From assembly GCF_964213995.1 (NCBI RefSeq), contig NW_027590151.1:1-64000 (forward strand): a DNA stretch of 64,000 nucleotides, in the 5' to 3' direction. The notes under the pieces were generated by a model that was given only the letters and a program-made list of their open reading frames with translations, did no database searches and had not been told where the DNA came from. The stretch's first letter is position 1. Every line of letters starts with the position of its first letter. Both the position numbers and the translations under genes were made by a program. This stretch comes from Mustelus asterias (taxonomy: Eukaryota). Shown here piece by piece: positions 3,096-61,832 of the stretch.

Positions 3096-3770
3096 TTACT
3101 TATGAATTCGCTGGTGTGTCAGCAGGTTAGATGGCTGAGTGAATCCTTTCCCACACACAGAGCAGGTGAATGGCCTCTCCCCAGTGTGAGTGCGTTGGTG
3201 TATCACTAGGTTAAAGGACTTTATGAATCCTTTCCCACACACGGAGCAGGTGAATGGCCTCTCCCCTGTGTGAGTTCGCTGGTGTATCAGCAGGTTGGAT
3301 GGGTGAGTGTATTCCTTCCCACACACAGAGCACGTGAACGGTTTCTTCCCCGAATGAACTCTCTGGTGGGCAATGAGATTGGGAGAAGACCTGAACCTCT
3401 TTCCACAATTGGTGCAGCTGAATGGCCTCTCCTCGCTGTGGGTTTGCTGGTGTTCCAGCAGATGGGAGGATCGAGTGAATCCCTTCCCACACTCGGAACA
3501 GCTGAATGGTCTCTCCCCGGTGTGAACTCGCTGGTGTGCAGTGAGGTTGGATGAAGACTTGAACCTCTTTCCACAGGAAGCGCAGCTGAACGGCCTCTCC
3601 TCAGTGTGAGTTTGTTGATGTGACTGGAAACAGGACAACTGAGTGAATCCTTTCCCACACACAAAGCAGGTGAATGGCTTCTCCCTAGTATGAATGCGTC
3701 GATGATTTTCCAACAGGGATGAATATTTGAAACCTTTACCACATTCCTCACATTTCCATGGTTTTTCCAT
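3096..3770 (-). CDS. Tandem C2H2 zinc-finger protein, 8 fingers
   Basis: 224-aa ATG-initiated ORF of CxxC-x12-HxxxH repeats with TGERPF linkers; splice acceptor (tttcttttgcag|g) at ~3968. Confidence 0.9.
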   Translation of the reverse strand: MEKPWKCEECGKGFKYSSLLENHRRIHTREKPFTCFVCGKGFTQLSCFQSHQQTHTEERPFSCASCGKRFKSSSNLTAHQRVHTGERPFSCSECGKGFTRSSHLLEHQQTHSEERPFSCTNCGKRFRSSPNLIAHQRVHSGKKPFTCSVCGKEYTHPSNLLIHQRTHTGERPFTCSVCGKGFIKSFNLVIHQRTHTGERPFTCSVCGKGFTQPSNLLTHQRIHK

Positions 3771-4594
3771 GTTGTCGATGTTCTTGTGTCTCTCCAGGTT
3801 GGATGATCAGTTGAAACCTTGTCCACACACACAACACGTGTACAGTTTCTCCCAGCTGCAAATAGTGTGATGTTCTTTCAGGCTGTGTAAAGCTCTTTCC
3901 ACAGTCAGTTCACTGGAACACTCAGATGGGTGTGTGTGTGTGTCTCAGTGCTTTTCCAGTCTAGCACCCTGCAAAAGAAATTCAGGAAAATGATATAGAG
4001 TATGGATAGAAACTCTGAACAGACAGTTCTAGTTTCTCTGGAACACTTTTTCCTTTCTTGTTCCCCCAAATCAGTAAATCCCCGTCCCGCACACTCTCCC
4101 TCCTCCCTGGGCTGAAATCCAAACCCATCTCACCATCTCTTTCCTCCACTCCCAGTTTTCTCCCTCCCTCTCCTCTGTCTGGGTTCAGTTCTCCAGCTCC
4201 TGTCTGCAGACTGACAATAAAACCAATGGGTCTTATTGGGGGTGTTGGGACCTCCAGAGGGTGTTTGTGAATCCTCCCCGCCCACCTCCCAGGGTTTCCT
4301 TCCTTCCCAGAGATCAGAGTCCTCATTGATTTGAGGCCAAAGTGTAACCTCTTATTTATTGTCCCCCCTCCCCCATCCTCTGATGTGAACCATCCTCCAG
4401 TGGCTGAGCCAGGATGGGGCCGTTAACCTGGGCCTGTTCCCGGGAGGGAGGGAGGGAGAAGCCCCGCAGCTGCAAACCAGGGAGCTGACAATGATTCTGA
4501 AGGGTTTGCGGATCCACAAAGTGTTTCCAAATCCTCCCAGCCACCGCCTAACGCTGACTCCGCTTCTCCGGGACAAACAAGCGCCAAGGCCAGC

Positions 4595-4820
4595 AATGAC
4601 ACTGCGCATGCTCCACATCACAATGCCCGGGCACTGATTGACGGCAGCTCCGGACCAATAGGAAAGAGGGGGGGGCTGGAGGACCGATCGGGAGCGGCTG
4701 GTCCTCCAACCAATCGGAGTGAATGAGGGGCGGGGCTGGAGGACCGTGCGGGAGAGGCTGGTCCTCCAACCAATCGGCGTGAATGAGAGGCGGGGCTGAG
4801 CCCAGATCTCCCTCATTGGC
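4595..4820 (-). promoter_or_regulatory. CpG-island ZNF promoter cassette
   Basis: ACTGCGCATGC (NRF1), TGATTGACGGCAG, three CCAAT, two GGCGGGG boxes and two GGAGGACC..GGTCCTCC inverted repeats, upstream of ZNF 3096..3770. Confidence 0.75.
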
Positions 4821-5743: not shown

Positions 5744-5890
5744 TAAACAGATGGAGCCCTGTGGGTGCGGAGCAAACAGATGGAGCCCTGTGGGTGCGGA
5801 GCAAACAGATGGAGCCCTGTGGTGTGGAGCAAACGGAGCCCTGTGGGTGTGGGGGCAAACAGATGGAGCCCTGTGGCTGTGGAGCCTGGT
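5744..5890. repeat. ~30-bp minisatellite, ~5 degenerate copies
   Basis: AAACAGATGGAGCCCTGTGGGTGCGGAGC repeated in tandem. Confidence 0.85.
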
Positions 5891-7317: not shown

Positions 7318-7839
7318 CTATTCACACAGACATACACACAGAGCTTGTTGATATATTAGAAATTTAAATGAGCAGGTAAATGGCCTCTCTCCGGTGTGAA
7401 TTCGCTGGTGTTCAGTGAGTTGTTCTGATCCCCTGAACCCGATCCCACAGTGGGAGCACCTGAATGGTCTCTCATCAGTGTGAACCCGCTGATGGCGCAC
7501 CTTATTTGCAGAAATTTTATAGCCCTTCCCACAGTCTTGACATTTAAATGGTCTCTCATCCGTGTGAATTTGCTGGTGTTGCATCAGCCCTGACGATCGA
7601 GTGAATCCCTTCCCACACTGGGAACAAATGAACGGCCTCTCCCCAGTGTGAATTCGCTGGTGTGTTAGCAGCCCTGATGATCGAGTGAATCCCTTTCCAC
7701 ACTCAGGGCAGGTAACTGGCCTCTCCTCAGCGTGACTGCGCTGATGAGTTTCCAGCTCAGATGGGGATCGGAATTCCTCCTCACAGTCCCCACATTTGCA
7801 CGGTTTCTCTCCAGTGTGAACAGTTCTTTTTCCTTCCAT
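7318..7839 (-). pseudogene. C2H2 ZNF, 5 fingers, truncated at the 3' end
   Basis: [13 protein letters not shown] start; finger 6 breaks after FTCS (~7370) into unrelated AT-rich sequence. Confidence 0.75.
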
Positions 7840-8224
7840 GTTCAAAATTCTCCGATATTCAGGCTGCAATAAATTGGGCGATTCCGTCCGATTTTGATGT
7901 GTTTGATTTGTGTTTCATGACTGCAAAGTCTAAAGATTGACATTAAAAAAAGAAAAAAAGGCGTGAGACAGAACTCACAAAAACACAAAGGCAGGTTGTG
8001 AAATTGAGCTGAATGAATCTGGTAACTTGTGGGGCCGGAACTAGAAAAAGTGACTATGGACACTGCTGGTTCATTGTTAAAAACCTAACTGGCTCACTGA
8101 CGTCCTTCAGGGAAGGGAACCTGCTGCCTGGTCTCGTCTACACAAGACTTCGGCCCCTATAAGAACATAAGAAATAGGAGTGAGATTAAACCATGAGGCC
8201 CATAAATACATGCATCTTGCTGCC

Positions 8225-8650
8225 TAACGCCCCCCACAAAGATGGCGACCGTACACGTGCCTTGCTGCCCAAATGCTCCCGACAAAGATGGCTGACTATT
8301 GATCCCAATAAAGATGGCGGCTGCGCTGCCCATTGATTTTACAACCAACATCTTTCGAGAACAATCACCCAGGGCCTCGGGCTTCTTATTGGCGGTTTGA
8401 GGCCCACACCCGGTTTCTATGAATTTCCCTTTCCTACACAGGATGTTTATGAAGCCTCCTTTCTCACCCGCCGGTTCCATTTAACCTCACTCACCCGCTG
8501 TCTCCAATTAATCTCTGCTCTCCCTCTGACTCCCACACCACCCCGTCCGGCCACTGTCAACACCAACACTGCGCATGCTCCAGTCAGAGCGGCTCTGCGT
8601 ACTGAAGATAGGGCGTATTCTCACTCTCGGTGCATGCTGGGCACCAGCAC
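8225..8650 (-). promoter_or_regulatory. CpG-rich promoter region with YY1 and NRF1 motifs
   Basis: Three AAGATGGC motifs (8238-8322) and ACTGCGCATGC at ~8568, upstream of ZNF 7839. Confidence 0.6.
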
Positions 8651-12060: not shown

Positions 12061-12615
12061 CAGAGAATCAAATGGGTTTGAGAAAACGAATGTATTCCTT
12101 CAGTGCCGTGATGACTCTGATTGAAAGATACAGCGTCGCTACATTTATTATGATACTAATCTAGTAAATAAGAAATGCACTGAATTAGGAAATGATAAAA
12201 AGGTCAAACGGGTAACTGAAATGTCTCCTCACAGTCTCTAGATTTCCACGGTTTCTCCCGAATGTGACTGTAGTTGTGAATGGTGCTGCTTCCTTCCATG
12301 TTCAAAGTTTCCTGCTTTTCAATTTACTTTAAATTGTGCAGCTCCATCCAATGCTGATTTGATGTTTTGTGTGAGCTTCCTGACCCCAGATCCTCCCTTT
12401 ATAAGATCAATTATATTAACATCTATAACAGAGCTGGAGTTTTTTTTCAATTCAGCAGAAACAGGCCCAAATGTACATGGTTCAATCTGAAAATTAACAG
12501 GAAAAATCCAACCACAATAGTTACTTGTGAATTCGCTGGTGTCTCAGCAGATTGGCTGGGGTGACAAATCCCTTTCCAGACTGGGAGCAGGTGACGGCTT
12601 CTCCCTAGTGTGAAT

Positions 12616-13809
12616 TCACTGGTGCCTTGCTAGGTGGGATGGCGTACTGAATCCCTTCCCACACTGGGAGCAGATGAAAGGTCTCTCCCCAGTGTGAACT
12701 CGCTGGTGTGTCAGCAGATGGGATGACTGAGTGAATCCCTTCCCACACTGAGAGCAGGTGAATGGTCTCTCCCCAGTGTGAATTCGCTGGTGTATCAGCA
12801 GGTAAGATTGGTTAATGAATCCCTTCCCACACCGAGAGCAAGTGAACGGTCTCTCCCCAGTGTGGATACGCTCGTGTCTCAGTAAATTGGCAGAGTCAGC
12901 AAATCCCTTCCCACACTGGGAGCAGGTGAACGGTTTCTCCCCAGAGTGAATTCGCTGGTGCATTGCTAGGCGGGATGGCCTATTGAATCCCTTCCCACAC
13001 TGAGAGCAGGTGAATGGCTTCTCCCCAGTATGAACACGTTGGTGTGTCAGCAGGTTGGATGACTGAGTGAATCCCTTCCCACACACAGAGCAAGTGAACG
13101 GCCTCTCCCCAGTGTGATCTCGCTGGTGTATCAGCAGTTTGGCTGAGCGAGTGAATCCCTTCCCACACTCGGAGCAGGTAAACGGTCTCTCCCCAGTGTG
13201 AACCCGTTGGTGTAACAGCAGAGTGGATAACTGAGCGAATCCTTTCCCACACTGGGAACAGATGAAAGGCCTCTCCCCAGTGTGAACTCGCTGGTGTGTC
13301 AGCAGATAAGATTGGTTAGTGAATCCCTTCCCGCACTGGGAGCAGGTGAACGGTCTCTCCCCAGTGTGAAGTTGCTCGTGTCTCAGCAGATTGGATGAGT
13401 CAGCAAATCCCTTCCCACACTGGGAGCAGGTGAACGGTTTCTCCCCAGTGTGAACTCGCTGGTGCATTGCTAACTGGGATGGTCTATTGAATCCCTTCCC
13501 ACACTCGGGGCATGTGAATGGTTTCTCCCCAGTGTGAATTTGCTGATGTCTTGCTAGGTGGGATGGCCTATTGAATCCCTTCCCACACTCAGAGCAGGTG
13601 AATGGCTTCTCTCCAGTGTGACTGCACCGATGAATCTCCAGTTGGGATGAGAAATCGAATCCTTTCCCACAGTCCCCACATGTCCATGCTAAATCCCTGT
13701 TGTGACTGCAATTATGTTCTGAAAGACCAGATGATAAGTTGAAGTCTTGTCCACACACAGAGCACATGTATGGTTTCTCTCCAATGTGAATGGTGCATTT
13801 TTCTTCCAT
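12616..13809 (-). CDS. Tandem C2H2 zinc-finger protein, 13 complete fingers plus a truncated 14th
   Basis: ATG at 13809 (aacATGg); TGA at 12616 falls in finger 14, and a relic last finger runs to ~12522; acceptor at ~13915. Confidence 0.88.
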
Positions 13810-14339
13810 GTTCAAAGTGCAATGATATTCAGGTTACAATAAATTGGCCGACTCCATCAGATTCTGATACGATGTTTGGTTTCAGTTTCCAAACTCCAAA
13901 TCCTTTTCTAAAACCCTGTGAAATTGATATAAAACAGAAAAAAGGGAGTGAGCGAGAACCCACAAAAAGACAAAGGTAGCTTGTGAAATTGAGCTGAAGG
14001 AATCTGGGAATTTGTGGGGCCGGCATTGCTGGCTTGTCATAAAAATCCAACTGGTTCCCCAATGTTCTTCAAGGAATGAAACCTGCCACCCAGTCTGGAT
14101 CTACACAAGACTGTGGACACTGTGGGAGGAGACAAAGAGAAATAGGAGAGAGCGGGGGTGAAGGAGAGGGATTTTATACATCTACAACTCAACAAGAACT
14201 TTGACAAAATCTCCCAAACCCTCAACCTCCATGACCAAGGACCAGGGTAGTAGGTTAGAAAGGAACCCCATCAACTCCAAGTTCCCCTACAACTCACACA
14301 TCATGCTGACTTGTCTGACATCCTGTACTAAAAGAACAT

Positions 14340-14550
14340 GAACTTTTTTTTAATGTAACTACTGGGAAGACTGAACCCATTGTGCTCAGTCCCCACTGCA
14401 AATTCCACTCCCTCGCTAGCAACTCTATCCCTCTTCCTGGCAACTGTCTGAGGCAGAACTAGGCTGTTCACAACCAGGATGAAATATTTCACCCCAGGTT
14501 GAGCTTCCAACCACATATTCAGATCATCATCAAGGCTGCCTACTTCCAAG
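14340..14550 (+). mobile_element. L2-like LINE relic in a ZNF intron
   Basis: Homologous to 39670..39850 (inverted) and 26570..26700; family call from recalled similarity. Confidence 0.5.
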
Positions 14551-14655
14551 GAGACAGAGGTTCAAGGTGAGAGAAGGAAAGTTTCAGGGAGATGTGAATG
14601 AGGAAGTTTTTCACGCAGAGAGTGGTGGGTGTCTGGAACGCGCTACCAGAGGAGG

Positions 14656-15262
14656 TCATCGAGTCATAGAGATTTACAGCATGGAAACAGGCCATTCGGC
14701 CCAACTTGTCCATGCCGCCCTTTTTTTAAAACCCCTAAACCAATCCCAATTGCTCATATTTGGCCCATATCCCTCTGCACCATCTTACCCGTGTAAGTAA
14801 CTGAATGCTTTTTAAAAGATAAAATTGTACCCGCCTCTACTACCTCTGGCAGCTTGTTCCAGACACTCCCAACCCTGTGTGTGAAAAAATTGCCCCTCTG
14901 GACACTTTTGTATCTCTCCCCTTAAACCTATGCCCTCTAGTTTTAGACTCCCCTACCTTTGGGAAAAGATATTGACTATCTCGCTGATTTGTGCCCCTCA
15001 TTATTTTATAGACCTCTATAAGATCACCTCTCAGCCTCCTACACTCCAGAGAAAAAAGTCCCAGTCTATCCAGCCTCTCCTTATAACCCAAACCATCAAG
15101 CCCCGGTAGTATCCTCGTAAATCTTTTCTGCATTCTTTCTCATTTAATAATATCCTTTCTATAACAGGATGATCAGAACTGCACACAGTATTCCAAGCGT
15201 GGCCTTACCAATGTCTTGTACAACTTCAACAAGACGTCCCAGCTCCTGTATTCAATATTCTG
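14656..15262 (-). mobile_element. CR1/HER1 LINE 3' part nested in a plus-strand CR1 3' end (14563..14655 + 15263..15440)
   Basis: QKRFTRILPGLDGLGYKERLDRLGLFSLECRRLRGDLIEVYKIM; same tail as 1..546. Confidence 0.85.
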
Positions 15263-15439
15263 TGGTGGGAACACACACTAGCAACATTTAAGAGGCATCT
15301 GGATGGATAATGAATAGGGAGGGAATAGAGAGATACAGACCGAGTAAGGGCGGAAGGTTTTTTTTAAGTTTAGTGAGGCCATCATGGTCAGCACAGGCTT
15401 GGAGGGCCGAAGGGCCTGTTCCTGTGCTGTTCTTTGTTC

Positions 15440-15970
15440 TTCCACCTCAGTGACATCGCCCGACTCCCCCAGTCTCAGCTCATCTGGGACCCTCACCCAT
15501 TCCATTGTGACGTCTGGAACCTCCCAGCACTCCTTCATTGCGCATGCGCCAGACCGCACACCGTCCCCAGTAAATATGGCGGCTGTTTGCACGGGCCTCT
15601 CTCGGAGAAAAGCCTGAGCAGCTTCCGCCGCTCCAAACTCCGCATCGGAGCTTCGGCCCACACGGGATGTTTATGAGGCCTCCAAACCTACCCGCCGGCT
15701 CCCTCCCTCATGACCCATCCCACGGTATCTCACCGGCTGATAATTTCCACAACCGCCTCGATCGTGAGTTCTCATCGGCACTGCGCATGTTCTCAGTCAC
15801 AACAGGAGTGTTCTGGTCTAGACCCGCCCCTCGTTCACTCCGATTGGCTGGAGGACCAGCCTCACTGCTCGGCTATCCAGTCCCGCCCTCTCTTTCTATT
15901 GGTCCAGAGCCGCCGTCAATCACTCCCAGGGCATTGTGAGCTGGAGCATGCGCAGTGCCAATGCTAGGCT
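15440..15970. promoter_or_regulatory. Bidirectional CpG-island promoter with symmetric cassette 15777..15959
   Basis: TGCGCATGCGC, AATATGGCGGC (YY1-like), CCAAT/GC boxes; lies between divergent ZNFs 13809(-) and ~16455(+). Confidence 0.7.
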
Positions 15971-16192
15971 CAGGCTGCAAAGCCGCAGGGAGCAAAGCCT
16001 GAGATTGAAATCAATGGGTTGCTGTAAAGCAGGTCAGGGTTACAGCCAACAACAACTTCTATTTATTTAAAATCCTTAACATCAGAAATCATCCCACTGC
16101 ATTTCACAGGAACATCCAGATACATCAGGATATATTAGCACAGATGACCAAAAGATTGGATAATCAAAGAAACCCTGCAGTACAGAAAGAGC

Positions 16193-16451
16193 AAGAAGTT
16201 TAACAACACCAGGTTAAAGTCCAACAGGTTTATTTGGTAGCAAAAGCCACACAAGCTTTCGTAGCCTTAAACTCCTTCTTCAGGTGAGTGGGAATTCTGT
16301 TCACAAACAGGGCACAGAGACACAAACTCAATTTACAGAATAATGGTTGGAATGCGAATACTTACAGCAAATCAAGTCTTTAAGGTACAAACAATGTGAG
16401 TGGAGAGAGCATTAAGACAGGTTAAAGAGATGCGTATTGTCTCCTGTCTGG
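16193..16451 (-). mobile_element. Penelope-like pseudo-LTR fragment with a degenerate hammerhead (16246..16292)
   Basis: Same family as 4862..5121; minus strand CTGAAGAAGGAGTTTAAGGCTACGAAAGCTTGTG. Confidence 0.75.
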
Positions 16452-16454
16452 AGA

Positions 16455-16885
16455 CAATACACATCTGGATTCAATCGATTGATATGGGAAGGCAAAAGTG
16501 TAACCAAAACAGGGAAAGTCCGTGTGGACAATGTGGGGATACCGGGAAGGGATTCTATTATCTCTCTGATCGGGAAATTCATCGATGCTGTCACACTGGT
16601 GTGAGGCCATTCACCTGCCCCCTGTGTGAAAAGGGATTCACTCAATTTTCAAATATGTTGCGACACCAGCAGGTTCACACCAGGGAGAAACCCTTCACCT
16701 GCTCCCAGTGCGGAAAGGGATTCACTCAGTCATCCCACCTGCTGACACATCAGCAAGTTCACACTGGAGAGAGATCGTTCACCTACCCAGTGTGTGAAAA
16801 GAGATTCATCGGCCCTGCTGAGACACCAGCGAGTTCACACTGGGAGAGGCCATTCTTCTTCTTTGTGTGTAAAGGAATTTGCTGA
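16455..16885 (+). pseudogene. Degenerate C2H2 ZNF (2 intact fingers)
   Basis: CPLCEKGFTQFSNMLRH and [17 protein letters not shown]; flanking fingers broken. Confidence 0.7.
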
Positions 16886-17499
16886 TAACCACAGCAAGTG
16901 GGCTGCAGTTGGAAGAATTTTTATTTATATAGTGCCTTTCACAACCTCAGGGTATCTCTATGCGCAGTAAGCCTCCACAAACAGAAATGTGATGATGATC
17001 AGAAATAATCTGTTTTTCGTGAGGTTTATCGAGATTGAAAGACACAATGAATTTAAAATAGAATTTTACAATAAGTTTGAAAACAATGTTACTCAATCTG
17101 AAACTAGGGTCTTAAATCTAAACAGAGGTAACCGCAAAGTTATGAGGAGGCAACTTGTTTGTGGTGGATTAGGAAAATACCAAAAAGCTGTGGATCCATT
17201 ATCAACAAATGTATTCCCATAAACAAAGCTGATAAATGACTGAGTCAATCTCTTCCCCCACACACAACCATCATCATCTGGAAGGACAAGGACAGCAGAC
17301 ACATGAGAACACCACCTGCTGCAAATTCCCCTCCAAGCCACATGCCATTGTGACTTGGAAATATATCGCTGTTCCTTCACTGTCACTGGATCAAAATCCT
17401 GCAATTCCCTCCCTAACAGCACTATGGATATACCTACACCACATGGACTGAAGTGGTTCAGGAAGGCAGCTCATCACCACTTTCTCGGTAAATTTATGC

Positions 17500-25031: not shown

Positions 25032-26153
25032 TTACTCGTGAACTGACTGGTGTCTCAGCAGATTGGATAACTCGATGAATCCTTTCCCGCACTGGGAACA
25101 GGTGAATGCCTCTCCCCAGTGTGAATTCGCTGGTGCCTCTGCAGGTTGGCTGACTGAGTGAATCCCTTCCCACATTTAGGGCAGGTGAATGGCCTTTCTC
25201 CAGTGTGTGTGCGCTGGTGTTTCAGCAGGGTGGATAAATCAGTGAATCCCTTCCCGCACTCGGAGCAGATGAACGGTCTCTCCTCGGTGTGAATTCGTTG
25301 GTGAACAGTCAGGTTTGTTGAACTCCTGAACCCAGTCCCGCAGTGAGTGCACTTGAATGGTCTCTCGTCCGTGTGAACGCGTTGATGGGACATCAGTTGG
25401 CTGGAACTTTTATAGCACTTCCCACAGTCTGGGCATTTAAAAGGTCTCTCGTCAGTGTGAACTCGCTGGTGTATCAGCAAGTCAGATGGCCGAGTGAATC
25501 CCTTCCCACACTCGGAGCCAGGTGAATGGCTTCTCCCCAGTGTGAGTCAGTTTGTGTAAATGCAGGCTGCTGGACTGAGTGAATCCCTTCCCACACTCGG
25601 AGCAGGTGAACGGTCTCTCCCCAGTGTGAACCTGCCGGTGAACCAAGAGGTTGGATAATTGAATGAATCCCTTCCCACACTCAGAGCAGGTAAATGGTCT
25701 CTCTCCAGAGTGAACTCGCTGGTGCGTCTGTAGGTGGGATGACCGAGTGAAACTCTTCCTACACACGGAACAGGTGAATGGCTTTTCCCCAGTGTGATCA
25801 CGTTGGTGTGTCAGCAGGTGGGATAACTGAGTGAATCCCTTCCCACACTGAGAGCAGGGGAATGGCCTCTCCCCAGTGTGAACTCGCCGGTGATTCAGCA
25901 AGGTTGCTGACCGAGTGAATCCCTTCCCACACTCGGGGCAGGTGAACGGCCTCTCCCCACTATGAAGTCGCTGGTGATTCTGCAGGGCAGATGAATGACT
26001 GAATTCCTTCCCACAGTCCCCACATTTCCACACCTTCTCCCTGGTGTGACTGCGCTTGTGTCTCGACAGGCCAGATGACTGGCTGAAGCCTCGCCCACAC
26101 ACAGAACACACGTACAGTTTCTCTCCACTGTGAACAGTGCTTTTTCCTTCCAT
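25032..26153 (-). pseudogene. C2H2 ZNF, 13 fingers, with +1 (~25520) and -1 (~25108) frameshifts
   Basis: ORF 25482..26159 (7 fingers) continues in ORF 25055..25480; acceptor at ~26262; could still give a 7-finger product. Confidence 0.8.
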
Positions 26154-28379: not shown

Positions 28380-29100
28380 GTCAGCCCAGGCCCAACACGA
28401 CCAGCTGCGGCTCCATTTGGTACAAACGGGGGGGACCGGGATGTTCTTTCCCGGGATTTGAACAACATGTTTCCGAAGCCTCTCCAACCGCCACATTCAC
28501 CGCGCGCCGCTCTTCACCTCCTATTGACCCGGGATCCGAGTTCAAACCGGCTGTCGCCATTACCCGCACTGCGCATGCCCGAAACTCCGCCCCTCATTCC
28601 GTCTGATTGGTTGGAGGACCAGCCACTCCCGTTTGGTCCTCCAGGCCCGCCTCTCATTCACTGATTGGTTGGAGGACCAGCCACTCCCGTTTGGTCCTCC
28701 AGCCCCGCCCCTCATTCACTCTGATTGGTCCGGAGCTGCCGTCAATCTGTTCCCGGGCCCAGCGAGCTGGAGCATGCGCAGTGCCGATTCCGGATGGGGT
28801 CAGTTTGGTTGGAAACTGGCAGCGGGTCAGATTCAGAAACGAGGTGAGCGGGAAACACTGGACCCGGCGGGTAGTGTGGGAGGCTAAAGAAATACAAGGT
28901 GTAGGCCCAGAACCGCCAACGAAAAACCATCGGCCTTCCATTTGCCACACTGGAGCCGTCGTTTTTTTTGTTCCGCGGTTGAAGGCTCGGGTTAGCGCCG
29001 CCATCTTTATAGGGGGCAACATTCTGCAATGCGCATGCGCCATCTTGATCATGGCCCATGTACTGCAGTGCGCAGGCGCGGCCATTGTGGCTGGACTCTG
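28380..29100. promoter_or_regulatory. Bidirectional CpG-island promoter with cassette 28567..28785 and a YY1/NRF1 cluster
   Basis: Two tandem ~58-bp GC-box/CCAAT/inverted-repeat units flanked by inverted GCACTGCGCATGC; GCCGCCATCTT and TGCGCATGCGC at 28995-29085; lies between ZNFs 26153(-) and 31598(+). Confidence 0.8.
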
Positions 29101-31597: not shown

Positions 31598-32692
31598 ATG
31601 GAGAAACCGTGGAAATGCGGGGACTGTGGGAAAGGATTCAGATCCCCATCCGAGCTGGAAATTCATCGACGCAGTCACACCGGAGAGAGACCGTTCACCT
31701 GCTCTAAGTGTGGGAAGGGATTCACTAATTCATCTGATCTGCACACACACCAGCGAGTTCACACAGGAGAGAGGCCCTTCACCTGCTCTGTGTGTGGGAA
31801 AGGATTCACTCGCTCATCCAACCTGTTAGAACACCAGAAAATTCACACTGGAAACAAGCCATTCACCTGTTCTGTTTGTGGAAAGGGATTCTCGTGGTCC
31901 TCCCACCTCCTGGTACACCAGCGAGTTCACACTGGGGAGAGGCCGTTCACCTGCTCTGTGTGTGGGAAGGGATTCACTCGGTCCTGTAAACTGCAGATGC
32001 ACCAGCGATTTCATGCTAGTGAGAGGCCGTTCACCTGTTCTGAGTGTGGGAAGGGATTCATTTATTCATCTACCCTGCGGACACACCAGCGAGTTCACAC
32101 TGGGGAGAGGCCATTCACCTGCTCTGAATGTGGGAAGGGATTCACTCGGTCAGCCCACCTACAGACACACCAGCGAATTCACACTGGGGAGAGGCCATTC
32201 CCCTGCTCCGATTGTGGGAAGGGATTTACTCGGTTTTCCATCTTGAAAACTCACCAGCGAGTTCACAGTAGGGAGAAGCTATTCACCTGCTGTCAATGTG
32301 GAGAGGAATTCTCTCGGTTATCCATCCTGCAGACACACCAGCGAATTCACACAGGTGAGAAACCGTTCACATGTTCTGACTGTGGGAAGAGATTCTTTCA
32401 TTCATCCGCCCTGCTGAGACATCAGCGAGTTCACACCAAGGAGAGGCCATTCCCCTGTTCCGAGTGTGGGAAAGCATTCACGCAGTTATCCAATCTGCAA
32501 ACACACCAACAAATTCACACAGGGGAGAGACCGTTCACCTGCTCTGTGTGTGGAAAGGGGTTCACTCGATTATCCCACCTGCGGACACACCAGCGAATCC
32601 ACACTGGGGAGAGGCCGTTCCCCTGCTCTGAATGTGGGAAGGGATTCACTCGGTTATCCATCCTTAAGACACATCAGCGAGTTCACAAGTGA
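31598..32692 (+). CDS. Tandem C2H2 zinc-finger protein, 13 fingers
   Basis: 364-aa ORF (13 x 28 aa), gcaccATGg start; acceptor ttttacag|a at 31251. Confidence 0.92.
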
Positions 32693-38183: not shown

Positions 38184-38559
38184 ATGAAGTTTGAGTCTGT
38201 GGTGAAGTTTGAGTCTGTGTGTGAAGTTTGAGTCTGTGTGTGAAGTTTGAGTCTGTGGTGAAGTTTGAGTCTGTGTGTGAAGTTGGAGTCTGTGGTGAAG
38301 TTTGAGTCTGTGTGTGAAGTTGGAGTCTGTGTGTGAAGTTTGAGTCTGTGTGTGAAGTTTGAGTCTGTGTGTGAAGTTTGAGTCTGTGGTGAAGTTTGAG
38401 TCTGTGGTGAAGTTTGAGTCTGTGTGTGAAGTTTGAGTCTGTGGTGAAGTTGGAGTCTGTGGTGAAGTTGGAGTCTGTGTGTGAAGTTTGAGTCTGTGGT
38501 GAAGTTTGAGTCTGTGTGTGAAGTTTGAGTCTGTGGTGAAGTTTGAGTCTGTGGTGAAG
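38184..38559. repeat. 18/19-bp minisatellite, ~20 copies
   Basis: TGAAGTT(T/G)GAGTCTGTGG and TGAAGTT(T/G)GAGTCTGTGTG units interspersed. Confidence 0.95.
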
Positions 38560-38639: not shown

Positions 38640-39060
38640 CTCCCCCACTCCCTCAGCTGGCAGACCAGCGCGCAGGCGCGGAGAGCGCTGCTGAGCCGAG
38701 CTGTCCGGAGCAGGCGCAGTGCGGCTGCCGCCAGCGGCCGCTCTCGATCTCTTTTTGGAGCAGCGGCCGGAGAGAGAGGGGGGAGGGGGAGATCACCGAG
38801 CGGCTTCTCGCTCTGGCCGGAGCCGCCAGCCGGTTGCCGGGAAACCTTGGCTCGAGGAGATGGCAGGGGGCGGGGGAATCAATGAGAGGGGGCGGGGCTC
38901 CCATGTCTGCGCGCCCGGGCCTGCGCACTGGAAATCCAGGACGTCACATCGGTACAGGCTTATTCCTCTTGCCTAATTCAGGCTAGGTTCCATTGTGACG
39001 TCACAACGCGGAAGTTGGCCAACGAGGTTCAGAGTGAAACTCCCGCTTCTGGACAACATC
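38640..39060. promoter_or_regulatory. Bidirectional CpG-island promoter
   Basis: GCGCAGGCGC (NRF1-like), two GGGGCGGGG, CRE palindrome TGTGACGTCACA at ~38994, CGGAAGT (ETS); lies between ZNF 36924(-) and 40311(+). Confidence 0.75.
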
Positions 39061-48405: not shown

Positions 48406-49662
48406 TGGAAGAGTGTGATCCACTGTGCCGTGGCTGATACAATAGACAATACAAAGTTAGAAAGGGAAAGGTATTCTTCACCTCCAGTGCTTCAATGTAA
48501 AAATAACAACCTCATACAAAAACAGGTATTGAATGCACAAATGTTGAAGAGTTTGTTGAAAGCTACAAGTTTCAGGTTCCCACTTGAGCCTGGGGCACCT
48601 TTCTGTCTCTATTGCTTGTGTCAATGCCAGCCAGGCAACGGAGCTAAGAGCTGAATTTAGCTGAGAATAATGGGGCTTGTGCCCCAGTTGGGAAACTGCC
48701 CTGGGCGTCGCACTAATAGAGAGACAGGAAGGTGCTGGAGGACTGACTGGGAAATGGGCCTCCAGCCAATCGGGGCAGGAGACGGGGCGATTGGGGCAGA
48801 TGGTGACGGAACCCCTGGGGTTCAGTCCATGTGCCCAAAGTGTGGAGTCACAGTAACAGGTGCAGAGGAGCTGGAGAGAAACCATTTGGGCCCAGAGCAT
48901 TGTGAACATCCTTTTAATCTATAGAATTGGGATTCGGGGTGTCCATTAACCCTTTATTCTCTTTTCCTAAACTCTGAAATGATTCCCAGTGATAACCCTT
49001 ATTGGTGACAGTGGTTAGATTTTATTCAGTATCAATAAGAGCTGACACAGTCTGATGTCTGAGCAGTCGTATCAAAGTGCAGCAGCATTACTATTACACT
49101 CTGGGTAGAAGCAGCATCTCCATGTAAATACTCCCTGGTTGCCTCCCACAGTGCAAAGATGTACAGGTTAGGCAGATTGACCAATGCTAAATTGCCCCGT
49201 AAATGTCCCAGGATGTTATGGTTAGGGGGATTAGTGGGGTAAATGCGTGGGGTTATGGGGCTAGGGCGGGGAGGGGTGTGTCTGGGGAAGATGCTCTGAC
49301 AGAGAGTCGGTGCAGACTCGATGGGCCAAATGGCCTCCTTTTGCATAGTAGGGATTCTATGATTACCATAATTACCACAATCAGTTCCAGACAGGAAACT
49401 TAAACCTGCTGTTTCACTCTCAGTCAGGAACAGATCCCAGTTTTACACCAATCTCTGATTTGACAGTATGTTTCCAGCATTCAGTGTTGTTCTTACTGAC
49501 TCTAAACACAGTTGTAAAGGAGCCTCTGTTCCGTGCCGAGGAGCTCTGAACCATGGAAGAGAACAGCTGGGACACATTTCTTACACACCTCAGGTTTAAC
49601 CCACACATTTAGTCCTCAATGTGATCAACAGCAGCAATAACAGAGAACTCCAACCTCTGCAC

Positions 49663-50643
49663 TCACTTGTGAATTTGCTGGTGTGTCAGCAGGTTAGAAG
49701 ATTGAGTGAATCCCTTCCCACACATGGAGCAGGTGAATGGTCTCTCCACAGTGTGAGTGCGCTGGTGTTTCAATAGATGAGATGAACAAGTAAATCTTTT
49801 CTCACACTCGGAGCAGGTGAATGGCCTCTCTCCGCTGTGAACTCGCCGGTGTGTCAGCAGTGCGGCTGATCGAGTGAATCCTTTCTCACACTCGGAGCAG
49901 GTGAACAGCCTCTCTCCAGTGTGAGTGCGTCGATGTCTCAGCAGATTATCACTGTTTTTAAAGCTCTCCTCACAGTCAGGACATTTAAAAGCTCTTGCAT
50001 CAGAGTGAGTGCGCTGGTGTCTCAACAGGTTGGATGAATTAATGAACCCCTTCCCACCCATGGAGCAGGTGAACGGCCTCTCCCCAGTGTGAGTGCGCTG
50101 GTGTACAGTGAAGTCAGATGATTTCCTGAACCCAGTCCCGCAGTGAGAGCACCTGAATGGCCTCTGGTCAGTGTGAACACGTTGATGGGACATCAGGTCC
50201 CCAGAACTTTTATAGCCCTTCCCGCAGTCTGGGCATTTAAAAGGTAAGAAGTTTAACAACACCAGGTTAAAGTCCAACAGGTTTATTTGGTAGCAAAAGC
50301 CACACAAGCTTTCGAGGCTCTGAGCCCCTTCTTCAGGGCTCAGAGCCTCGAAAGCTTGTGTGGCTTTTGCTACCAAATAAACCTGTTGGACTTTAACCTG
50401 GTGTTGTTAAACTTCTTACTGTGTTTACCCCAGTCCAACGCCGGCATCTCCACATCATTTAAAAGGTCTCAGGTCAGTGTGAACTCGCTGGTGTTGCAGC
50501 AGGTTGGATGACTCTCTGAATCCCTTGCCACACATGGAGCAGGTGAATGGCCTCTCCCCAGTGTGAGTGCGCTGATGGATTTCCAGCTGGGACAGCCATT
50601 TGAATCCCTTCCCACAATCCTCACATTTCCACGGTTTCTCCAT
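49663..50643 (-). pseudogene. C2H2 ZNF (~9 fingers) disrupted by a Penelope-like insertion
   Basis: ORFs 50455..50724 and 49663..50376 are in the same frame, split at RPFK|CPDC; acceptor at ~50970. Confidence 0.88.
50246..50455. mobile_element. Penelope-like perfect fold-back insertion
   Basis: 84-bp perfect arms 50244..50327 / 50336..50419 with an 8-nt loop; 12-bp TSD catttaaaaggt at 50234..50245 and 50456..50467. Confidence 0.9.
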
Positions 50644-52529: not shown

Positions 52530-52850
52530 TGGACAATCACCACCTCAAGATGGCGGCGCCCGCCGGTTGCCCGGGTAACCCGGGCCCAAGCAACAGGGAG
52601 CAGCCCCGCCCACTCCCCCTTCCCTTACCAAGATGGCCGTCCCCACGCTCCGCTCCCTGAACAAAAGACACGCCTTCCTCTCCTAAGATGGTGGCCGGTT
52701 GCCCGGGTCAATCCGGGACCCGGATGATCCTCTTCCTATTGGTCCGGAGCTGCCCGTCAATCACTCCCCGGCCCATTGTGAGCTGGAGCATGCGCGGTGT
52801 GGCTGTGAATCTGGACTCAGGCGGATGAGTGCAGGAGGTTCCAAACCTCC
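52530..52850. promoter_or_regulatory. Bidirectional CpG-island promoter with YY1 motifs and the cassette terminus
   Basis: Three AAGATGG(C/T) motifs, GTTGCCCGGGTAAC (RFX-like palindrome), GC box, ATTGGTCCGGAGCTGCCCGTCAATC..GAGCATGCGC; lies between 50970(-) and 54169(+). Confidence 0.75.
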
Positions 52851-54082: not shown

Positions 54083-54521
54083 GAGAGGAAAAAATGTTCC
54101 AGAGAAACTAAAATTGTTCAAAATTTCTATCCTGGACTAACTGATGACTTTTGTAAACTGTTTTACAGAATATTGGAAAGGAGGAATTACAGACAGAAAC
54201 AGAAATCACATTGAGATCTGACAGAGTCACTCGATTCATCAGGGTCTGAATATCATTGGCCTTTGAATGTGGAAGGAGAAATGTTTGTTCTGTCTGTGGG
54301 AAAAGATTTCAAACATCAGTGTGACTGGAAAAGCACCGAGACACACACAAATACCTGAGAGAGTATTTCTGTGAACTGACTATGGAAAGAGCTTTAACCA
54401 GTTACACAGCCTGAAAAAATATCACACCATTCACAGCGAGGAGAAACCGTTCACATGTTCTGTGTGTGGATGAGGATTCAACTAAGTGTCCAACCTGGAG
54501 AGACACAAGGACACCAGCACC

Positions 54522-55502
54522 ATGGAGAAACCATGGAAATGTAGGGATTGTGGGAAAGGATACAGTTACCCTTCTGAACTGGAAATGCATCAACGCGCTC
54601 ACACTGGGGAGAGGCCGTTCACCTGCTCCACCTGTGGGAAGGGATTCACTCAGTCATCCAGCCTGCTGACACACCAGTATGTTCACACTGATCAGACACC
54701 TTTCAAATGTTCTGACTGTGAGAAAACATTTAAAAGCAAAAAGTATCTGCTGAGGCACCAACACATTCACAGTGAGGAGAAGCCGTTCACCTGCCCCTTG
54801 TGTGGGAAGCGATTCACTGCTACATCCAACCTGCAGAAACACCAGCGAGTTCACACTGACAAGAGACCCTTTAAATGTCCAGACTGCGGGAAGTGCTTCA
54901 AAACCTCCGGTGAAGTGACGTGTCATCAACGTGTTCACACTGACGAGAGACCATTTAGATGTTCTCACTGTGGGACTGGGTTCAGACGATCATCTGAACT
55001 CACTGTACACCAGCGAATTCACACTGGGGAGAGGCCATTCACCTGCTCTGTGTGTGGGAAGAACTTCATTCAATCATACCACCTGCTGAAACACCAACAA
55101 ATTCACATCGATGTAAAACCTTTTCAATGTTTTGACTGTGAGCAGAGCTTTAAAAGCAGCAAAAGTCTCGTGATGCACCAGCGAGTTCACACTGGGGAGA
55201 GACCGTTCACCTGCTCTGTGTGTGGGAAGGGATTCACTCAGTCATACAACCTGTTGAAACATCAGCGGATTCACTCTGATATAAAACATTATAAATATTT
55301 TGATTATGAGCAGAACATTAAAAGTAGCAATGATCTAATGATACACCAGCAAGTTCACACTGGAGAGAGACTGTTCACCTGTTCCGAGTGTGGGAATGTA
55401 TTCACTGACTTACAGCAAATGCTCAGACACCAGCAATTTCATGAGTGTCTGCAGGGGTTGGATTCAACTGCTTTTGCTGCTGGTAATCACATTGAAGACT
55501 GA
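54522..55502 (+). CDS. Tandem C2H2 zinc-finger protein, 10 intact fingers plus 1 degenerate, with a C-terminal extension
   Basis: gcaccATGg start; acceptor at 54169; ends ECLQGLDSTAFAAGNHIED*. Confidence 0.9.
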   Translation: MEKPWKCRDCGKGYSYPSELEMHQRAHTGERPFTCSTCGKGFTQSSSLLTHQYVHTDQTPFKCSDCEKTFKSKKYLLRHQHIHSEEKPFTCPLCGKRFTATSNLQKHQRVHTDKRPFKCPDCGKCFKTSGEVTCHQRVHTDERPFRCSHCGTGFRRSSELTVHQRIHTGERPFTCSVCGKNFIQSYHLLKHQQIHIDVKPFQCFDCEQSFKSSKSLVMHQRVHTGERPFTCSVCGKGFTQSYNLLKHQRIHSDIKHYKYFDYEQNIKSSNDLMIHQQVHTGERLFTCSECGNVFTDLQQMLRHQQFHECLQGLDSTAFAAGNHIED

Positions 55503-58869: not shown

Positions 58870-59050
58870 AGGACTGGAGGGGCACTCTGCTCCCGCTCGG
58901 TCCTCCGGCCCGGCCCCTCATTCACTCTGATTGGTTGGAGGACCAGCCGCTCCCGGTCCTCCAGCCCCGCCGTTCATTCACTCCGATTGGCTGCAGGACC
59001 AGTTGCTCTTTCTTGGTCCTCCAGCTGCTCCCTCTCGGTCCTCCAGCCAC
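58870..59050 (+). promoter_or_regulatory. Partial ZNF promoter cassette
   Basis: Repeated CCCCTCATTCACTCTGATTGGTTGGAGGACC..GGTCCTCCAGCC units; the terminal NRF1 site is absent. Confidence 0.65.
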
Positions 59051-60800: not shown

Positions 60801-61216
60801 AATGTTCCATAGAAACTAGAATTGTCTGCTCTGAATTTCTGTCCTCTATTTACACTGATAACTTCTGTAAACTCCTTTTACAGGGGGTGAGAGGGAGAGG
60901 AGTTCCAGACAGGAAAGTCAGAACAAACATCATGTCAAAATCTGAGAGTCACTCGATTCATCAGCTGAATATCATTGGTCTTTGAATGTGGAAGGAAAAA
61001 TGTTTATCTGTTCTGTCTGTGGGAAAAGATTTCATAAATCAATGGGATTGGAAAATCACCGAGACACACACACACCCGAGTGAGAATGTTCCAGTGCACT
61101 GAGTGTGGAAAGAGCTTTAAACAGTTACACAGCCTGAAACTACATCACATCATTCACAGAGGGGAGAGACTGTACATGTGTTGTGTGTGTGGACGAGGCT
61201 TCAACTGATCATCAAC

Positions 61217-61832
61217 ATGGAGAGACATGATGACACCGACACCACGGAGAAACCGTGGATATGTGGGGACTGTGGGAAAGCATTCACTTGCCCATCCAAA
61301 CTGGAAACATATCGACGCACCCACACTGGGGAGAGACCTTTCAACTGCTCCATGTGTGGGAAGGATTTCACTCAGTCATCCAACCTAGCATTACATCAGC
61401 GTGTTCACACTGGAGGGGCCATTCAGCTGCTCTGTGTGTGGGAAAAGATTTACTCAGTAGTACAATCTAGCGTTACACCGGCGGGTTCACACTGGGGAGA
61501 GGCCGTTCACCTGCTCCGTGTGTGGGAAGGGATTCATTAATTCCTCTAACCTAGTGGCATACCAGCGAGTTCACTCCGGGGAGAAACCATTCAGCTGCAC
61601 TGACTGTGGAATGAGCTTTAGGCTTTCATCCACCCTGCTGAAACACCAGCGAGTTCACACTGGGGAGAGGCCATTCAGCTGCACTGACTGTGGAAAGAGT
61701 TTCAGACACTCAGGCAGTCTCACTGTACACCAGCGAGCTCACACTGGGGAGAGGCCATTCACCTGCTCCGAGTGTGGGAAGGGATTCATTGATTCATCTC
61801 AGCTGCTGAAACACCAGCGAGTTCACAAGTGA
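61217..61832 (+). pseudogene. C2H2 ZNF, 7 fingers, with a frameshift (~61413) and a stop (~61458)
   Basis: Canonical ATG is mutated to ACG (TTEKPW); ORFs 61178..61540 and 61518..61832; acceptor at 60884. Confidence 0.82.

Follow-up and report, generated by a model that had tools for sequence, protein, structure and literature searches.

The repeated cassette considered here is most probably the TATA-less CpG-island promoter core of one branch of finger-only C2H2 zinc finger (ZNF) genes, which was segmentally duplicated and from which a hAT-type element captured approximately 430 bp; judged from sequence, we give this reading a probability of about three in four. An initial annotation had described the cassette as a portable bidirectional promoter that was co-amplified with the ZNF genes and was possibly derived from a MITE. 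Its promoter-like anatomy, its placement at the 5′ side of ZNF genes, its frequent head-to-head setting and its co-amplification with these genes are supported, and the link with MITEs runs in the opposite direction: part of the cassette promoter was captured by a hAT-type element.

The window, i.e., the whole stretch of 64,000 nucleotides that was analysed (C119:1-64000 of a 3.68-Gb genome), contains 14 C2H2 finger arrays with at least two fingers each, located on both strands. Its finger and SINE sequences suggest a shark-type genome. In a Pfam scan of six open frames, zinc-finger families were reported, with no KRAB, SCAN or BTB domain among the families listed, and Rfam gave no match at gathering score in the whole window. 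The focal cassette (15777..15959, plus strand, 120 bits in nhmmer) comprises one GC-box/CCAAT unit and an end module. As first described, its bounds form an imperfect inverted repeat of about 26 bp (87% over 31 columns in BLAST, fold z −4.2). The left arm (15777..15802, minus strand) carries a left-facing NRF1-like site and copies the right end in inverse. It is followed by the unit (15823..15881, plus strand), with a GC box, a TCATTCACTC-like word, an inverted CCAAT (15843-15847) and a GGAGGACC arm, the second palindrome arm being decayed; by a DECA-like site (TGATTGACGG on the minus strand, 15898..15921) that lies 12 bp from CCAAT and forms a candidate PBX/PREP and NF-Y composite; and by the right arm (15934..15959, plus strand), with a TTGTGA word and a right-facing NRF1-like site. 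The left partner is a 405-aa open frame with 13 C2H2 fingers (12619..13833, minus strand), for which no KRAB, SCAN or BTB domain appeared among the 25 of 34 Pfam families listed, and the right partner is a decayed ZNF frame in which two intact fingers are followed by stops (16400..16882, plus strand).

Six places in the window had been named as related, and both BLAST and nhmmer agree. Apart from the focal copy, they include a cassette with two units and an end module that faces the ZNF frame 3099-3806(-) and lacks the left NRF1-like site (4592..4820, minus strand), and a cassette with two full units, an end module and 13-bp inverted ends, that is, 12 bp inward plus 1 outward (28567..28785, plus strand), which lies between the arrays 25038-26108(-) and 31616-32686(+). 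An end module alone, 1 bp longer and with zero units, was located by nhmmer between the arrays 49669-50625(-) and 54540-55442(+) (52729..52800, plus strand), and units alone, without an end module, lie upstream of a broken array at 61009-61826(+) (58875..59050, plus strand). The last one is a degenerate fragment (48709..48777, minus strand, 25.8 bits in nhmmer) in a tail-to-tail interval between two gene 3′ ends, and is likely a relic. The description of each copy as units plus an end module therefore suits three of the six places (4595, 15777 and 28567) and not the other three, two of which (58870 and 48709) do not end in the module. The unit length of about 58 bp was confirmed, the period being 58–60 bp in TRF and the distance between ATTGG words 55–61 bp in most copies. 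The unit core has six matches in the window versus 0.00 expected from shuffles, and the CCAAT-DECA word has three versus 0.02.

Several other features of the window were observed. Two inverted ZNF paralogs, 1916-2607 and 54341-55032, are 94% identical at a distance of 52 kb. A second ZNF promoter class, with a CpG island, GC boxes, CRE and NRF1-like words, is present at 38660-39030 (and also in locus L042 at −900..−600), where a divergent gene pair has no cassette. Upstream of the ZNF frame 7321-7914(-), an island at 8239-8580 resembles a one-sided promoter and contains YY1 words and a single NRF1-like site. Two tandem arrays adjoin promoter regions: a 19-bp satellite of 20 copies (38185-38559) and a 29-bp array of five copies (5745-5885), the latter seen again to the left of the cassettes in L032 and L068.

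From left to right, the cassette consists of a left-facing NRF1-like word, the units, a GC box, an inverted CCAAT, the DECA-like word, TTGTGA and a right-facing NRF1-like word, each unit containing a GC box, an inverted CCAAT and a GGAGGACC...GGTCCTCC palindrome. Unit number is 0–2 in the sample and four in one tile. NRF1, YY1, CRE and GC box are used here as names for consensus words that we take to represent such sites, with binding putative; the NRF1-like sites are one letter off what we assume to be the NRF1 consensus, whose full form has no match in the window. NRF1 sites facing both ways had been proposed for the cassette; a left-facing NRF1-like site is present in 27 of 43 copies, whereas 16 of 43, including that at 4595, have none. 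On the opposite strand, the end reads TGATTGACGG, ten bases and CCAAT. In 40/43 copies CCAAT is preceded, on its own strand, by a GAnnGAC core, the GAC-to-CCAAT gap also being 12 in 40/43, and the usual form of the site, TGATTGACGG, is one letter off TGATTGACAG. In 25 non-redundant copies the DECA core is intact throughout; the gap is 12 in 20 of them, 11 in two and 13 in one, and CCAAT is mutated in the other two. Genome-wide, DECA-CCAAT occurs 892 times with a gap of 11 (versus 9 in the reversed control) and 1286 times with a gap of 12 (versus 12), an enrichment of about 100-fold at both gaps. Other clustered DECA-CCAAT promoter families, with an 11-bp gap, were seen on C8 at 4.6–5.8 Mb and 31.4–32.0 Mb.

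The same 25 copies (from 64, none chosen by end pattern) were used to measure constraint, with a profile trained on pattern-picked copies. Per-column mismatch was 0% in the DECA core, 0.7% in the NRF1-like words, 2.1% in CCAAT, 3.9% in the palindrome arms and 5.8% in the GC box, compared to 11.9% in spacers (p = 2e-7), figures that omit gaps and come from related copies, some of them chosen by BLAST or unit core in a way that favours motif columns, and 9/25 of which miss the right end. The TCATTCACTC word is not conserved (12.6% mismatch). The GC content of the cassette is 0.61, its CpG observed/expected ratio peaks at 0.84 versus 0.3–0.4 around it, and no TATA word was found within −600..+200. 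A neutral hitch-hiker, repeated through duplication and homogenisation of whole ZNF segments, would accord with the kilobases of common flank shared by close paralogs at 92–99%, with a commonest right flank that is more uniform (2.4%) than the cassette spacers (5.4%), and with the many broken partner genes. However, the motif columns are far better kept than the spacers, the CpG island has low CpG decay, the cassette is kept in unrelated flank classes and in other organisms, and it is absent in tail-to-tail intervals, all of which makes such a passive origin highly improbable.

Two repeats near the cassette were also recorded. To the left of the commonest cassette class, a 30-bp tandem array of variable copy number carries the CRE palindrome TGACGTCA (at −700..−400 in L038, L042 and L062), a single unit of which is present in the window at 15497-15515. 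In 6 of the 18 copies in which the insertion point was matched (window 52910, L041, L042, L045, L065 and L067), a SINE-like repeat interrupts the common leader at one shared position, about +455 relative to the DECA-like site. The insert is 134–299 bp where measurable and its target is duplicated; eight copies are empty and four "filled" calls are point variants. This position resembles a hot spot of insertion.

Genome-wide, 719 exact matches to the end module were counted, as opposed to none for the reversed control. Among the 100 matches listed (in contig order), 92 lie on C71 (20.4 Mb) and 8 on C87, with apparently none on C1–C70 or C72–C86. The unit core has 916 matches, of which 20 of the first 100 listed are on C3–C67. 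ZNF linkers of the same family (5608 matches) form clusters on C12, C16 and C23 as well, where no exact end module was present among the matches listed, suggesting that the full cassette is confined to one branch of the ZNF family. The initial annotation had named co-location with ZNF genes across the genome as a check. When approximately every second listed match on C71 was sampled (40 of 92), a ZNF array was found within 5 kb of 33/40 copies, compared to 4/20 control tiles taken one per megabase of C71 (p = 8e-6), although the paralogs are related and cassette counts are thus not independent. The four array-bearing tiles were also the only ones with a cassette match, one of them weak. The seven remaining copies lack such a neighbour, and several of their loci contain LINE frames. 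In C119:1-264000, which contains 37 arrays, cassettes of at least 40 bits were found in 8/12 divergent, 2/12 tandem and 0/12 convergent intervals (p = 0.0013), two of the convergent intervals containing 23–26-bit fragments alone. The four divergent intervals without a cassette, together with the clusters on C12, C16 and C23, rule out a strict rule by which every ZNF gene would have a cassette.

The 20 unit-core matches on C3–C67 have a ZNF array within 5 kb in 8 cases, and the right NRF1-like site is absent in 20/20. Seventeen of them (L114-L130, on the small scaffolds C28–C67) have one duplicated unit in common, which contains a cassette without the right NRF1-like end and mostly no intact ZNF array within 5 kb. 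The cassette is also contained in contigs from four other organisms, one of which shows 15 differing letters and 5 gaps in an alignment of 275 bases; this indicates that it is older than this genome and is no sign of transcription. In the joint tables of those contigs (four runs guessed to be RNA), interspersed repeats dominate and no sign of start or splice sites emerged; no RNA run was listed as covering 12500-17000.

Whether the cassette serves both neighbours is less uniform than had been proposed. The bidirectional reading is consistent with the copies that have a left NRF1-like site and with the 15/40 C71 copies flanked within 5 kb by outward-pointing ZNF arrays on both sides, while the 16/43 one-sided copies would not fit it, and many cassette copies face one way only. 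One alternative is that the cassette drives the right-hand gene only and that left genes start at neighbouring modules of the same CpG island. The module is asymmetric, more than one-third of copies (the same 16/43) have no left site, and many loci have CRE arrays as well as another GC-rich module at 400–900 bp to the left, where the left genes may therefore start. Orientation bias also differs between the two sides: the nearest downstream array is sense in 26/29 C71 copies, starting 1.0–3.8 kb away (11 copies had none), and the nearest upstream array is antisense in 19/24 (16 had none). In contrast, only one CpG island separates the two genes in each of the window pairs at 15777, 28567 and 52730, truncated lineages have lost the right NRF1-like site and kept the left one, and words resembling splice donors are located 43 and 85 bp to the left of the focal cassette (another lies 58 bp to the right of the 28567 copy). 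We consider purely one-way use unlikely. Mirror-image leaders were rejected as a rule: 11/44 left flanks match the right flank in reverse, of which just two (L036 and L058) are long leader copies and at least three others involve interspersed repeats.

With regard to how the cassette spread, its nearest paralogs have 0.6–3 kb of flank in common at 90–99%. In a set of 71 copies, in which some places were counted twice, 17 left and 10 right flank classes were distinguished. Left classes 0 and 2 occur with right classes 0 and 2 in all four pairings (31, 3, 3 and 1 of 71), a combination that calls for one or more exchanges within the cassette or close to it. Co-amplification with the ZNF genes, as originally suggested, is supported by the 5′ placement and by these long common flanks. 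Portability holds for the piece captured by the hAT-type element, probably also through recombination between paralogs, and not otherwise.

The idea that the cassette itself is a MITE, whose CACTG...CAGTG ends recall CACTA/CMC and which inserted near ZNF genes and was domesticated, draws on the inverted ends of 11–13 bp found in 22/43 copies. These two-ended copies have a perfect 13-bp inverted repeat in 20/22 and one of 11–12 bp in the other two; in addition, right flanks shift sharply past the cassette end, and in one copy of the window the flanks match over 3 bp. However, the inverted repeat is equal to the conserved NRF1-like word and may be nothing else. Target-site duplications are absent in 20 of the 22 copies, the other two showing a mere 2- or 3-bp flank match, and a search for an empty site, in which the commonest left flank would directly meet the commonest right one, found none. 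Exact end modules are not dispersed (the 100 of 719 listed are all on C71 and C87), and just 7 of the first 100 listed among 775 left-end words precede C71. A genuine MITE in this genome carries the cassette as cargo. The missing duplications and empty site, as well as the long flanks common to copies, thus contradict the proposed MITE derivation. A MITE or CACTA origin, rejected on duplications, empty site and distribution, appears very improbable, and a single very old MITE insertion behind the cassette is possible. A solo LTR origin, considered on the basis of LTR features, was also rejected, as there is no TATA word near the cassette, no flank duplication and no dispersal.

A near-identical CCAAT-DECA word recurs on large chromosomes. 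Among 20 such places fetched, one is a ZNF-type cassette and 19 belong to a single family of approximately 573 bp with sharp ends and unrelated flanks, at none of which a ZNF array was found. Elements of the hAT type are defined by short terminal inverted repeats and an 8-bp target-site duplication. The 573-bp element (L131-L148, L150, L162 and L174-L186) ends in TAGGG(T/A)GGCCA, an 11-bp imperfect repeat, and 8-bp duplications were found in 18/19 copies with both ends called (33 examined, with at most one mismatch and 1-base end shifts allowed). The ends of maize Ds are likewise given as 11 bp in the available text of PMC3260210. A DNA search for the element gave 41 matches among 40 scored candidates, at about 38 places and 89–100%. 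The element ends have no match in 135 ZNF-region sequences, and the hAT end word has four matches in the window versus 2.0 expected, none adjoining a cassette end.

The cargo of the element is about 430 bp of ZNF promoter, comprising a left leader with YY1 words, the left NRF1-like site, a shortened unit and CCAAT-DECA, without the 31 bp that hold a palindrome arm. It is 62–68% like the ZNF promoters sampled first. A parent-type locus, C71:19659137-19659588 (L171:4838-5288), matches the cargo at 86% over 375 and 80% over 66 columns; it has no element ends and a full cassette with a canonical DECA, on either side its resemblance to ZNF promoters extends farther than the cargo does, and a sense ZNF array lies 8.3 kb downstream. 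As this locus differs from the cargo by 14–20%, compared to 3.4% between the copies and their majority, it is a possible rather than an established direct donor. Both cargo junctions have 3–4 letters in common with the element ends. A tree was built from 22 rows, six of them element copies and 16 a thinned selection of 41 ZNF loci that leaves out the parent-type locus. The element copies group there as a shallow clade whose long stem arises in an unresolved fork among deeper ZNF lineages. CpG transitions are more frequent in element copies (57/774, 7.4%) than in ZNF-linked copies (28/1012, 2.8%), whereas non-CpG transitions are equal at about 1.7% (40/2402 and 113/7058, respectively). Such faster CpG decay is in line with methylation after dispersal, the copies not being independent.

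The same ends enclose other sequences. Among 20 other right-end matches, one has ZNF-promoter cargo, and the 11 in which both ends could be called make up four cargo groups, with a CpG observed/expected ratio of 0.8–1.2 in 10/11, although young elements can be CpG-rich anyway. These cargoes include TGCGTCA-rich (L151, L159 and others), YY1-repeat (L153 and L167) and CCAAT/DECA-rich (L154 and L170) ones. A 6.4-kb member with the same ends and an exact 8-bp duplication (L217:593-6995, C14:70750092-70756494) has broken transposase-like frames interrupted by LINEs. Its Dimer_Tnp_hAT match (E 0.025, 14.8 bits) is below the cut-off of 21.4, a PDB search with the transposase gave no match, and a Pfam SrfB match (E 0.019) was taken as chance. 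It is a tentative and rather improbable suggestion that this hAT-type family is a repeated promoter collector with CpG-rich CCAAT/DECA/YY1/CRE-like cargoes, and that some of the approximately 38 copies now serve as promoters or early-embryo enhancers of unrelated genes, linked to TALE/NF-Y.

On the reading as a duplicated promoter core, NF-Y would occupy the CCAAT boxes and PBX/PREP would recognise the DECA site, at a distance of 12 bp from the last CCAAT, with Sp2 as a possible bridge between them; the GC boxes would be targets of Sp/KLF, and the end sites, which face outward, of an NRF1-type factor. Transcription would start beyond the right end and, given the left site and a left gene, also beyond the left end. 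Unit number (0–3 or more) has likely changed by unequal crossing-over, left and right partners would have been swapped as well, and cassette and ZNF genes would have been copied together by segmental duplication. The cassette lacks transposon-like boundaries; a non-autonomous hAT-type element took up about 430 bp of one promoter of this kind and spread it to approximately 38 sites on large chromosomes.

Most likely, the kind of promoter predicted here is already known, namely a CpG island with DECA-CCAAT, NF-Y and NRF1-like sites that was amplified with a ZNF family. The accessible part of 10.64898/2026.02.16.706105 gives the DECA-CCAAT geometry as GAnnGAC-11bp-CCAAT, with 10–12 bp tolerated in an AlphaFold model, and PMC6023610 and 10.1101/720102, as far as their available text goes, give the PBX/PREP DECA motif as TGATTGACAG with an average spacing of 20 bp to NF-Y sites. 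Similar to that composite of PBX/PREP, NF-Y and Sp2 (10.64898/2026.02.16.706105), the cassette has CCAAT preceded on its own strand by a DECA-like decamer, with extra CCAAT boxes and GC boxes nearby and about 20 bp from start to start; it differs in its gap of 12 rather than 11, in usually having TGATTGACGG instead of TGATTGACAG, and in having reached several hundred copies along with a single gene family, its binding being putative. It also resembles the vertebrate bidirectional CpG-island promoters covered in the portion of PMC4730256 at hand in being TATA-less and CpG-rich, in lying between head-to-head genes and in having NRF1, YY1, NF-Y and Sp1 words, yet it has a variable unit number, coding exons 1–5 kb away and only partly two-sided copies. 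Its CCAAT spacing of 55–61 bp contrasts with the classes of 19, 26, 36 and 43 bp reported for NF-Y multi-CCAAT modules in the excerpted text of PMC4889920.

Hundreds of clustered tandem C2H2 genes and a promoter architecture common to gene subsets are likewise described, in the parts of 10.1101/2022.11.29.518450 and PMC5690287 available to us, for the ZNFs of zebrafish chromosome 4 (FiNZ) and tetrapod KRAB-ZNFs. Unlike these, the genes studied here have no effector domain in the six window frames scanned, and their promoter is of the DECA-CCAAT/NRF1 type, compared to the TATA type of zebrafish sharp-peak ZNFs. According to the main text of PMC8277862, in its available sections, hAT is the commonest Pack-TIR carrier, only four multicopy cases were found in 100 animal genomes, and the word "shark" is absent. 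The frog element Pack-hAT-N8_XT from that study similarly consists of host 5′ sequence captured between non-autonomous hAT-type ends, with short letters in common at the junctions and with distinct target-site duplications on many chromosomes. It has three copies as reported there, compared to approximately 38 for the 573-bp element, whose cargo is a promoter core with leader and whose ends carry at least four cargo groups. A literature search, with most subscription journals and repeat databases outside its scope, gave nothing on shark ZNF promoters or on the 573-bp element, which may already be catalogued. The present analysis adds the reversed MITE relation, a multicopy Pack-hAT with a ZNF-cluster promoter as cargo.

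The captured copy represents a large multicopy Pack-TIR, a class reported to be rare in animals. Together with its source, it offers a natural experiment in which the same promoter is present in its home cluster and at approximately 38 foreign sites, with CpGs decaying faster at the foreign ones. For the ZNF family, one promoter core on several hundred genes predicts their co-regulation by TALE/NF-Y, factors which in zebrafish act at the time of zygotic genome activation, and the cassette provides one short sequence with which the whole family may be tested.
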